From the NCBI GenBank assembly GCA_963799775.1, contig CAWCYD010000003.1, positions 416,001 to 480,000 of the forward strand: DNA of 64,000 nucleotides. Reading direction: 5' to 3'. Position 1 is the first letter of the stretch; the number at the start of each line of letters is the position of its first letter. Made by a program: the position numbers and the translations under genes. The DNA is from an uncultured archaeon. GTDB lineage: Archaea; Thermoproteota; Nitrososphaeria; Nitrososphaerales; Gagatemarchaeaceae. Positions 41,255-42,864 of the stretch are shown here, piece after piece. Under the pieces are notes generated by a model that was not told the DNA's origin, did not search any database, and saw only the letters and a list, made by a program, of their open reading frames with translations.

Positions 41255-41329
41255 GCTGAATACCGAGAAAGGCGCCCCCGGGGCCTGCTTAAAAGCTTGG
41301 GGCGTGGCGAGGGTGGTTCTCCCATGTCG

Positions 41330-41474
41330 TCGTGTTCTGCATATTTATGCTGGACGGAAGGGCATTCTCCCATTCGCTCTCTTTGGAGCATTGTGGCTTT
41401 CGCGGTAGCCTGTGGCCCAACCTGTTCCACGCGCTCTGAGGCGCAAGAACCTAACGGGCTCTAGCTCTTTTTGC
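41330..41474 (-). ncRNA. putative bridge/seek RNA region
   Basis: Stem-loops with segments matching both flanks and one junction (see findings). Confidence 0.6.
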
Positions 41475-42449
41475 TCAGCCGTCCAGCCTGAAGGTCTGTT
41501 CCTCCTTCAGCATGATGTACATGGCCCGCATGAGCTTCCTCGCTGCGGCCACGATCGCCACCTTCTCGCCCCTCCTCTTCGCGAGCTCCACGTAGAATTT
41601 CGTTATCGAGGAGTCGCACCACCTCACGTGGACGCGCGTGCACTGGACCATTATCCAGTTCAGCATCACGCTCCTCGTCCTGTTGGGTGTCGAGTGGCTC
41701 TTGTCCGCCGACTGTCTCAACCCTGGCACGAGGCCTGCGTACGAGCAGAGGTGCTCGTGGTCGGCGAATCTGTTCACGTCTGCGATCTCGCTCGATATCA
41801 GGAGGGCCGAGTAGTGGGAGACGCCGGGTATCGTGACGAGGAGCTTCGCATACTTGTCCTGCAGGGCGACCCCCTTCACCTTCAGGTCGAGCTCCCCGAT
41901 CTTCCCGTCCAGGAACTCGATGGTGTCCATGTAGTCGTCCACCGCGTCGATGTGGAGGGACCTCAGGAACTTCCTCCCTTCCCGCGTGAAGACGTCGCCC
42001 TCGTGCTTCACCCATCGCTTCGCGAGCTCCGCCTTCACCTTGCTCTTGAACCCGGTGCGCGTCTCGACGAGGTGATGCCTCCTCCTGACGAGGTCCCTGA
42101 CCTCCCTGGTCTTCTCGTCCGGCACGTAGGACTCGGGTATCATGTCCGCCCTCAGCAGGTCCGCCAGCGTCCTCGCGTCGACCTTGTCCGTCTTCACCTT
42201 TGCGTAGGCGATGGCCTTCACCATCAGCGGATGCGCGACCTTCACGTCGTATCCCTTCTCCTTCAGCACGTCGCGGATGTGCTGATGGTTGTACCCGGAC
42301 TCCATGACGACGCTCGCATTTGTGCCGTCGAGGAATTCCAGTATCTTTTCTTCGTCCTTCGCCACCTTCGACTCCCTCATCACCTTTCCAGCGTCGTCCT
42401 TGAGGACGCACTGTATCGATTTCTCGTGCAGGTCTAGCGCGGCATACAT
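41475..42449 (-). CDS. IS110 DEDD recombinase
   Basis: ALDLH, VMES, KTDKVDA, IPGV, YAGLVP..RQSA, A.VAAARKL. Confidence 0.95.
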   Translation of the reverse strand: MYAALDLHEKSIQCVLKDDAGKVMRESKVAKDEEKILEFLDGTNASVVMESGYNHQHIRDVLKEKGYDVKVAHPLMVKAIAYAKVKTDKVDARTLADLLRADMIPESYVPDEKTREVRDLVRRRHHLVETRTGFKSKVKAELAKRWVKHEGDVFTREGRKFLRSLHIDAVDDYMDTIEFLDGKIGELDLKVKGVALQDKYAKLLVTIPGVSHYSALLISSEIADVNRFADHEHLCSYAGLVPGLRQSADKSHSTPNRTRSVMLNWIMVQCTRVHVRWCDSSITKFYVELAKRRGEKVAIVAAARKLMRAMYIMLKEEQTFRLDG

Positions 42450-42518
42450 GCTAGTGGCTGTGGCTTTCCTTCGCCTTATCTTCTGCGAGCATCCCACCTG
42501 TTCCGTCTCTGAGATGGC

Positions 42519-42748
42519 TCAACTCGACGGTCCACTTTGGATGGTTCTTGGCTTGAGAAATGAGAACGCCAATCCGATCGCAGAAACGACGGTGATCAAG
42601 GCTGGAACTTCAACATCCATGACAACACTAGAAAGTAAGGACAGCCCGAAGCCGGACAACTGTAGCCCGTCGTCAATCCGAGATAAAGTGTGCCGACACC
42701 AAGAAGTAGCCCCATCAGAGAAAAGACCCTGATCTCCCGGCGGGTCAA
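42519..42748 (-). CDS. small 2-TM protein with CPxxGC motif (frameshifted)
   Basis: Manual translation MTRREIRVFSLMGLLLGVGTLYLGLTTGYSCPASGCP / ..VPALITVVSAIGLAFSFLKPR. Confidence 0.45.
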
Positions 42749-42864
42749 CTCGGTGCCCTCTCTTTCCTTTGAGATGGCCCTCCTATAGGAATTCCACCCA
42801 CTGGAAGCGCGTCCGGCCCCAGCAAGTCTTAAGGCGCTTCCAAAGTGGACAGACGCGAGCAGGG

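Follow-up and report, generated by a model that had tools for sequence, protein, structure and literature searches.

The stretch analysed here (hereafter the window) comprises 64,000 nt of contig CAWCYD010000003.1 (positions 416,001 to 480,000 of the forward strand) in assembly GCA_963799775.1, from an uncultured archaeon of soil or peat that shares its GTDB genus with the Candidatus Gagatemarchaeum stordalenia metagenome-assembled genome. On its minus strand lies a transposase gene of the IS110 family, set in an insertion element whose non-coding part between the stop codon and the right end measures 154 nt, against 48 nt upstream of the ATG (Table 1). A first-pass annotation, made from the letters of the window alone, had proposed that this downstream region encodes a bridge or seek RNA carrying matches to the target and the junction of the element. 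Our comparison of related loci bears out the substance of that proposal but not its crossover core and empty site, for which we arrive at 2 nt (AG/CT) and 11 nt, respectively. Taken together, the evidence makes it highly probable that we are dealing with an RNA-guided IS110-family insertion sequence, active in appearance and with an IS1111-type layout, in a Nitrososphaerota archaeon.

The open reading frame (ORF; 41478-42449, minus strand) encodes a protein of 324 aa, as had been annotated, and both Pfam and NCBIfam place it in the IS110 family. In Pfam, the domain models DEDD_Tnp_IS110 (PF01548; 5.9e-21, 75.3 bits) and, following it, Transposase_20 (PF02371; 3.8e-16, 59.7 bits) both score above the curated cut-offs, and the NCBIfam model NF033542, named 'IS110 family RNA-guided transposase', reaches 208.6 bits against a cut-off of 140. 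Among the structures in PDB, the recombinases of IS621 and ISCro4 are matched at E values of about 1e-9 (1.7e-9 for IS621, 8wt6). Residues E50, D88, D91 and S247 align to E60, D102, D105 and S241 of IS621, described as catalytic by Hiraizumi et al. (PMC11208158), and the first aspartate, D6 (in MYAALDLH), which lies outside the stretch aligned to IS621, is invariant in five aligned homologues. The C-terminal motif reads GLVPGLRQSA in the window protein and ends in SG in the consensus of the aligned homologues; a C-terminal GL-P----S(t)G motif and a transposase of 330-350 aa are given for the IS1111 group in PMC11187229. On comparison with relatives, the assignment of the element to the RNA-guided IS110/IS1111 kind, as an archaeal member, is well supported.

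The closest named element that we found is the haloarchaeal ISHvo10 (37.7% identity over all 324 residues), and the genomic matches to the transposase gathered below are assigned to Nitrososphaerota. Homologues at E ≤ 1e-20 occur in 25 of the 97 genomes of the host's GTDB family; the relatives collected for comparison comprise 15 loci from genome contigs and 70 from metagenome contigs, all oriented on the transposase strand. One genome of the same family (G002) holds 15 transposase matches, most of them at 33-39% identity, so that several other IS110-family lineages coexist in this archaeal family.

Table 1. Features of the IS110-family element in the window (positions count from the first letter of the window; strand as given, a point marking features without one).
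Feature	Position	Strand	Remarks
Core CT (AG on the transposase strand), right-end junction	41319..41320	.	chromosomal flank …GGTT ends at 41318
Element-specific body	41321..42497	-	1177 bp; 1179 bp including one copy of the core
Right end	41321..41331	-	…GACGACATGGG on the transposase strand; includes repeat arm CGACAT
A/T-rich box	41340..41349	-	CATAAATATG; just 3' of the RNA, ~20 nt from the element end
Guide (bridge/seek) RNA	41349..41487	-	~139 nt; bounded by closing stem P1
Stem P1	41479-41487 with 41349-41357	-	5' strand made of the last codons of the transposase gene
Donor guide	41365..41374	-	AAUGGG-AG-AA: last five right-end bases, core, 2 nt equal to the right flank (handshake)
Hairpin P5	41375..41390	-	UGCUC…GAGCG
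Hairpin P4	41395..41410	-	GGCU…AGCC; conserved sequence GCGAAAGCCACA
Stem P2	41415-41419 (3' strand) with 41455-41459	-	closes the target-binding loop
3' target guide	41420..41428	-	GGAACAG + GU: left flank GGAAC and core AG in transposase-strand sense; GU, 2-nt handshake
Hairpin P3	41431..41444	-	GCGC/GCGC; between the two target guides
5' target guide	41446..41451	-	GGUUCU; complementary to core AG and right flank AACC (transposase strand)
Transposase gene	41475..42449	-	324 aa (ORF 41478-42449) and stop codon 41475-41477
Internal pseudo-target	41493..41502	.	GGT-CT-GTTCC, in the 3' end of the transposase gene; one base short of GGTT-CT-GTTCC
Left end	42450..42497	-	GTGGGATGCTCGCAG…; repeat arm ATGCTCG, A/T-rich box GATAAGG and motif AAAGCCACAG upstream of the ATG
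Core CT, left-end junction	42498..42499	.	flank GTTCC at 42500-42504

The structure of the RNA was assessed on a MAFFT alignment of 31 distinct regions downstream of the gene. Five regions had been left out: those of L010, L032 and L040, where another element replaces the region, that of L038, which meets a contig end, and that of L031, the own-genome copy on contig 2, which is 1 nt away from the window row. RNAalifold found four of the five helices in this alignment unaided. For the complete five-helix structure 95.3% of 828 cells are paired and 10 of 27 pairs have changed on both sides, figures that none of 500 shuffles reaches; when the partners are slid by 1-3 columns, paired cells fall to 26-41% and doubly changed pairs to at most two. 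The central pair of P1 is U-A in 20 rows, C-G in nine and U·G in two, and in L075 CUGGAUG/CAUCCAG has become CCGGAUG/CAUCCGG. In the covariance-model alignment described below, four of the five P2 pairs are compensatory (e.g. GCUC/GAGC, GUCC/GGAC and GGCCU/AGGCC, all three in distant loci), as are two of the four pairs of P3, all of whose cells are paired, and in P5 the pair of alignment columns 187/202 occurs as UA (19), GC (7), AU (3) and CG (2). P4 is near-invariant there, with 96.9% of its cells paired and zero covariation. A covariance model built from the 31 sequences gave 34 matches in 62 sources, exclusively at loci with at least 58% protein identity, and no match in six loci at 37-40% protein identity, taken from other genomes and metagenome contigs. 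On the alignment fitted with this model (33 distinct rows), 97.0% of cells are paired and 13 of 27 pairs are compensatory, versus at most 3 in slid controls.

The two segments that match the target share one loop of this structure. The first-pass annotation had noted that ACCTGTTCC at 41420-41428 equals the flank at 42496-42504, that GGTTCT at 41315-41320 has its reverse complement, AGAACC, at 41446-41451, and that these matches fall within one stem-loop. Both identities are exact (for the former, 2 occurrences in the 64-kb window compared with a shuffle mean of 0.46), and the loop that holds both segments is closed by a covarying stem (41415-41419/41455-41459). The accompanying worry that the two segments could partly pair with each other is relieved by the covarying hairpin P3, which separates them. 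The RNA reads 5'…GCCCG-UUA-GGUUCU-U-[P3 hairpin]-GU-GGAACAGGU-UGGGC…3' on the transposase strand, and its handshake GU, next to the 3' guide, is identical to the two bases with which the left end of the element begins. With the target written on the same strand as 5'-GGAAC-AG-AACC-3', GGUUCU would pair with AG-AACC and GGAACAG with the opposite strand of GGAAC-AG, so that both guides would cover the AG core, as in IS621.

Support for such guiding comes from the variation of guides and flanks across related loci. In 29 loci the six bases of the 3' guide that precede GGU were compared with the six preceding GG in the left flank, and 162 of 174 positions agree; two of the 31 rows (L062 and L075) had been dropped, the contig ending in or before the flank. 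When guides and flanks are re-paired at random, agreements average 102 and never exceed 123, none of 10,000 permutations reaching 162. As many as 18 distinct 3' guide hexamers occur, TCAGTA, TTACTA, TCTTGA, TCGAAA, GCACCA and ATTATA among them. The reverse complement of the 5' guide equals the right flank at 186 of 261 positions, again in 29 loci (permutation mean 160, maximum 181); here L063 and L072, with the right end missing or cut, were dropped, and three loci shifted in register by one base (L051, L011 and L043) as well as the pseudo-site row L031 were retained as mismatches. The permutation figures for both guides overstate independence, since flanks are common to some of the loci, whose insertions may have been inherited. 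Individual loci illustrate the co-change: AAUUUACU goes with AGTAAATT in L077, CCGUUCU with AGAACGG in L054, GAUUCU with AGAATC in L055, and GGUUUCU with AGAAACC in L064, L075 and L076. Among the loci, 18 left guides and 10 right guides can be told apart, each next to its matching target, and together they form a natural series. Loop-flank covariation across homologues had been put forward as the check on the first-pass proposal. Both halves exceed their permutation maxima, and the covariation over some 30 loci lends support to the predicted bridge/seek RNA with loops pairing to opposite strands of the target, acting with the 324-aa recombinase.

Several features indicate that the RNA lies on the transposase strand. 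Read on this strand, the stems contain 62 G·U cells and are paired at 97.0%, compared with five G·U cells and 90.4% on the other strand (14 vs 5 G·U cells when an invariant U·G pair and a second, doubtful pair are set aside). Among the mismatches between 5' guide and flank over the first six flank positions, 9 of 12 are rU·dG or rG·dT wobbles if the RNA is on the transposase strand and 1 of 12 if it is on the opposite one, or 7 of 7 versus 0 of 7 without the pseudo-site row L031 and the register-shifted L011. The 3' guide mismatches, with 1 versus 2 wobbles among 12, are uninformative on strand. Folding of the single sequence points weakly to the same strand (z -1.94 on the minus strand, -0.55 on the plus strand). 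By the rule described for IS1111 elements, the stretch of RNA complementary to the top strand comes 5' of its bottom-strand counterpart (PMC11187229, section 9), and on the minus strand GGUUCU, complementary to the transposase strand, precedes GGAACAG, of the same sense, in agreement with this rule.

Two alternatives bear on the RNA itself. The functional RNA might come from the plus strand, antisense to the transposase, and run from the box at 41340-41349 to the T5 run at 41467-41471; the plus strand does carry a TATA-like box with TTTTT about 120 nt later, and guides that pair with opposite target strands cannot by themselves tell the strand of the RNA. However, the G·U cells of the stems, the wobbles at 9 of the 12 guide-flank mismatches and the published IS1111 guide order all point to the transposase strand, and the plus-strand fold is no better than shuffles (z -0.55), which makes an antisense RNA very unlikely. 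It might also be argued that the matches are passive relics, such as remnants of old junctions, that guide nothing, the protein alone picking the site; in its favour, function at this locus has neither an experiment nor an RNA read in support. Yet each of the 18 distinct hexamers agrees with the flank of its own locus, covarying stems frame the loop in which the guides lie, and guiding has been demonstrated experimentally for IS621, ISEc11 and others, as described in PMC11208160 and PMC11187229. We regard passive relics as extremely unlikely.

Turning to the genomic copies, three complete and two additional partial ones came to light when the assembly that holds the window (2.47 Mb in 3 contigs) was searched at the DNA level, each of the two other complete copies differing from the window copy at 2 positions. 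The limits of the element body were placed where identity among the three same-genome copies ends, at target bases common to all. On the plus strand the flanks read GGTT-CT[element]CT-GTTCC for the window copy, and GATT-CT[…]CT-GTTCA and GGTT-CT[…]CT-GTCCC for the other two; the three copies thus lie at G[GA]TT-CT-GT[TC]C[CA], and their flanks are unrelated outside these bases. Such near-identical sites in otherwise unrelated flanks show the insertion to be site-specific. Copies at sites unrelated to the loops had been named beforehand as the finding that would speak against RNA guidance; the three own-genome copies occupy near-identical sites.

The core was called from the comparison of junctions across loci and from the restoration of a tnpB gene split by the second copy, and we infer it from these for the window copy. 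The second copy (L002 959-3548; G000:C3, ~1668512-1669702) interrupts a tnpB gene (Cas12f1-like TNB domain) such that the part before the element ends in …GRQMNR and the part after it begins with RIKDTLHK…. All six intact tnpB homologues (432-471 aa, 58-62% identity, from other genomes of the family) read …GRQ(R/K)N-R-[IV][KR]D.LHK…, with a single arginine. An empty site with an AG core, …AAC-AGA-ATC…, reproduces the homologue reading, and only this model does so. The crossover core is therefore most likely the dinucleotide AG (CT on the plus strand, as in IS621), and the empty site of the window copy is likely GGTT-CT-GTTCC, 11 nt in length.

Two other readings of the junctions have to be weighed against an AG core. 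According to the first-pass annotation, TCCCA is a 5-bp duplication of the target and the empty site is the 18-mer GGTTCTCCCACCTGTTCC. The pentamer is indeed present at both ends of the element (41320-41324 and 42492-42496), and at both ends of all three own-genome copies. However, the right junction reads TAGGA (…CATAGGAG…) in 15 of the 30 related loci where it is readable, against TGGGA (…AGGTGGGATG…) at every left junction listed for these loci. Left ends of distant loci read GTGACATG, GTGATATG or GTGAAATG, and distant relatives with the GTGACATG end have no pentamer common to both ends. Moreover, a TCCCA duplication would add 7 nt to the split tnpB and break its frame, and it would keep the target guides from meeting at a common core, unlike what is described for IS621 and IS1111 elements (PMC11208160, PMC11187229). 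This reading is extremely unlikely: the duplication is an illusion produced by the left end of the element beginning with the same bases as the right flank, and the 18-mer gives way to the 11-nt site obtained from tnpB. A subtler option places the core at GG on the transposase strand, 2 nt upstream of AG, with the 14-mer GGAACA-GG-AGAACC as target; it is compatible with every left and right junction and leaves tnpB in frame. It was dropped for the reason that the restored tnpB would carry one arginine more than all six intact homologues; in addition, the 5' guide would not cover such a core, and the handshake extensions would be 1 and 3-4 nt long rather than 2 and 2. We regard a GG core as unlikely.

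Pattern searches were made with both models. The 14-mer of the GG model has 30 sites at up to 2 mismatches in the own genome, compared with 65 for the reversed control, and the corresponding 16-mer (ACTTGACAGGAGAACC) has no match in the 97 family genomes. For the 11-mer target of the AG model (GGAACAGAACC) there are 2 perfect unoccupied sites and 27 with one mismatch in the own genome, i.e. 29 against 104 for the reversed control, a deficit that may reflect under-representation or a composition effect. In five of 11 fetched loci (L122-L126) matches to the left and right flanks lie within ~20 nt of each other, and the intervening ~1500 nt (the element and ~310 nt) are absent; as these related genomes lack both the element and the ~310 nt beside it, they offer no clean empty site. 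The flank of L037 had no match in other genomes of the genus. The related genomes join the S26e-side flank to the sugar-kinase-side flank, missing the element together with 42500 to ~42810. This ~310-nt segment (42500-42810), absent from five related genomes and unique in the own genome, contains only two short overlapping ORFs with hydrophobic products; among the other fetched loci only L106 matched it, once over 47 nt at the nucleotide level (E 3e-4) and once, weakly, in translation.

A number of observations weigh against an RNA-guided element of the kind proposed, or against parts of it. Some of the compared loci are related, possibly inherited insertions with common flanks. The covariance-model alignment was fitted to the structure and tends to favour it. 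The single-sequence fold of the minus strand is weakly better than shuffles (z -1.94), and a search of Rfam returned no family, just two chance-level matches (E 1.7 and 3.4). Both full genomic copies other than that of the window have a single-base insertion that disrupts the transposase frame. For the AG core the basis is one split gene together with junction logic, and an orthologous empty site for the window copy was not found when the right flank was compared with 23 genomes of the genus. A left-end donor guide was likewise not found: the variants GGA, ACA, ATA, AAA, GAA and AGA, compared with the RNA by eye, have no consistent complement in it. Finally, the metatranscriptome matches come from relatives and are assembled contigs, a kind of record that says nothing on transcription or on the strand and ends of an RNA. 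Four metatranscriptome runs with 4-11% of sampled words gave 15 contig records, all from relatives, one of which, 211 nt long, covers 41360-41568 with a different 3' guide. A metatranscriptome contig from a relative joins 41578 to 42020; it is a deletion derivative in which the transposase gene has lost 441 nt and the RNA end is retained.

Recognition of the donor appears to be readable for one end of the element. The identity of TTCTCCCAT at 41365-41373 with the junction at 41317-41325, reported in the first-pass annotation, is exact (2 occurrences in the window, shuffle mean 0.61). The same annotation held the donor loop to be only partly resolved; the junction match can now be assigned to a right-end donor guide with its handshake, one half of the donor recognition. 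The variable G/A of the donor guide equals the right-end base in 30 of 30 loci (15 G/G and 15 A/A). In IS621, extensions of two bases, called 'handshake guides', pair with the partner DNA once strands have been exchanged (PMC11208158). By the same logic AAUGGG-AG would read the right end and the core, and both 2-nt extensions would pair after strand exchange.

A side observation concerns the left end. Where GTGGGATG is replaced by GTGGAATG (L054) or GTGAGATG (L056), GAGCCCC on the 5' strand of P2 has become GAGUCCC or GAGCUCC, respectively; in both loci the altered base is the one complementary to the change when the two are aligned antiparallel, and P2 is left with a G·U pair. The P2 stem could thus double as the left-end donor guide, a suggestion drawn from two cases only, which distant loci do not follow.

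By analogy with the work on IS621 and IS1111 elements, the RNA would be produced, probably by cleavage of the transposase transcript's 3' end. Folded as predicted, P1 would enclose the target-binding loop (closed by P2 and split by P3), followed by P4, P5 and the single-stranded donor guide. The same studies suggest that the element would be excised as a circle and inserted through a tetrameric synapse with serine-mediated strand exchange.

Both the layout, of the IS1111 type set out in 2024 by Siddiquee et al. and Durrant et al., and the guide logic of such elements are already described (PMC11187229, PMC11208160, PMC11208158, PMC13604230, bioRxiv 10.64898/2026.10.21.760802). The IS1111 elements with a seekRNA treated in PMC11187229 (ISEc11, ISKpn4, ISPa11 and ISPst6) likewise have a non-coding region with the RNA downstream of the transposase, and share with the window element the guide order and the overlap of the two matches in the target, and apparently also subterminal inverted repeats and the C-terminal motif GL-P----S(G/A). 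The window element differs from them in its archaeal host, its shorter transposase (324 vs 330-350 aa) and its repeat of only 6-7 bp; in its RNA, the closing stem uses the last codons of the gene, and a guide for a donor end is readable along with its handshake.

With IS621 (PMC11208160, PMC11208158, 8wt6) the window element has in common a DEDD and serine recombinase and a CT core, on the plus strand in the window. In IS621, too, both target guides include the core, as described by Durrant et al. (PMC11208160), and in each loop the 3' guide runs on into a 2-nt handshake (PMC11208158). The guide order of IS621 is that of the window plus strand, with the 5' guide in top-strand sense and the 3' guide complementary; the window RNA, however, lies at the other end of the element, so that the DNA is read flipped relative to the gene. 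In contrast to the plain internal loop described for IS621, the target loop of the window RNA is split by a hairpin into a three-way junction and the donor guide lies in a multiloop; a guide for the second donor half was not found in the window RNA.

Among archaeal elements, ISHvo10 from Haloferax volcanii (pHV4, NC_013966.1) is the closest named one that we found. Siddiquee et al. (PMC11187229, section 6) describe it as a diverged relative of the IS1111 cluster, and ISHvo9 and ISHvo10 belong to their ISfinder set. Our RNA model gives a weak full-length match in ISHvo10 (L188 502-684; 17.5 bits, E 0.0015 in 18 kb under a rough calibration), directly upstream of the gene rather than downstream, with a AUAGGUGA motif at the place of the donor guide.

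The wider interest lies in the RNA-guided IS110/IS1111 recombinases being under development as programmable DNA-insertion tools, and the characterised systems that we found in the literature are all bacterial. The element family described here offers a compact archaeal pair of a 324-aa enzyme and a ~139-nt RNA, with both handshake positions and one donor guide readable without an experiment. The related copies show unusually clearly the RNA and its target sites changing together, and this natural reprogramming series, along with the readable handshakes and donor guide, makes the guide rules of the IS1111 type explicit and testable. The result also has a bearing on annotation, the 5-bp "duplication" of this element being illusory. 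The biological gain is modest, given that 662 archaeal IS110-family recombinases have been catalogued (Vaysset et al., bioRxiv 10.1101/2024.06.21.599552) and that NCBI already names the family 'RNA-guided transposase'. Within the collection of papers searched, none contained 'bridge RNA' together with 'Thaumarchaeo…', and the supplements of large surveys may already list the RNA family of the window.

Five copies were identified in the own genome by the RNA model, and contig 2 has three of these, arranged head to tail. The copy of the element on that contig (G000:C2:227502-228010; L003, L172-L174) carries three 177-bp units, each a complete guide RNA with the right end, and each corresponding to window 41321-41497, i.e. 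to the right end and the RNA up to …AAGGT-CT. The breakpoint between units falls in the internal pseudo-target at the 3' end of the transposase gene, and the joint runs from the right end through AG to the sequence 3' of this near-target. It is possible, although we hold this tentatively, that the guide-RNA module multiplies on its own by self-targeting at the internal near-target. The tandem could then arise by insertion of a circle into the pseudo-target with later loss of the duplicated part of the gene, or by unequal exchange between the right junction and the pseudo-target. On the other hand, an assembly artefact or replication slippage might also account for the units. Had the recombinase made these joints by means of its own RNA, they would preserve, in an archaeon, the natural trace of RNA-guided recombination that was off-target and half-matched, and would open a route from guide-RNA genes to tandem arrays or solo selfish modules. 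A parallel is found in ISPpu9 of Pseudomonas putida, also of the IS110 family, in which the downstream small-RNA gene (ssr9) is described as a separately copied, separately circularising module (PMC12288879); here, by comparison, the repeated module is the guide RNA itself and its copies stand in tandem.

The ends of the element were compared over 23 distinct loci. ATG(N)TCG starts 6-7 nt into the left end, and ATGTCG starts 4 nt into the reverse-complemented right end, giving a short subterminal inverted repeat of 6-7 bp only, with arms that differ by one indel; Durrant et al. (PMC11208160) give 7-17 bp for the subterminal inverted repeats of IS1111 elements. The features of the left end are kept across all left ends listed, and its elements would presumably serve as the promoter of the gene. 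At the position of the box just 3' of the RNA, an A/T-rich stretch is present in all homologues listed. This box may be an archaeal TATA box acting as an outward or circle-junction promoter; it would initiate at about the element end, into the flank or, in the circle, into the transposase gene. A scan for promoters and terminators of the bacterial type, which is inapplicable to archaea, found nothing. A 10-mer, TGTGGCTTTC (GAAAGCCACA on the transposase strand), occurs twice, on the 3' side of P4 (41392-41401) and, upstream of the ATG, within the left end (42460-42469). At both places it follows a GGC…GCC hairpin-like context, and AAAGCC[AG]C is kept at both in all homologues listed; the repeat may be a putative binding site of the recombinase or an autoregulatory site.

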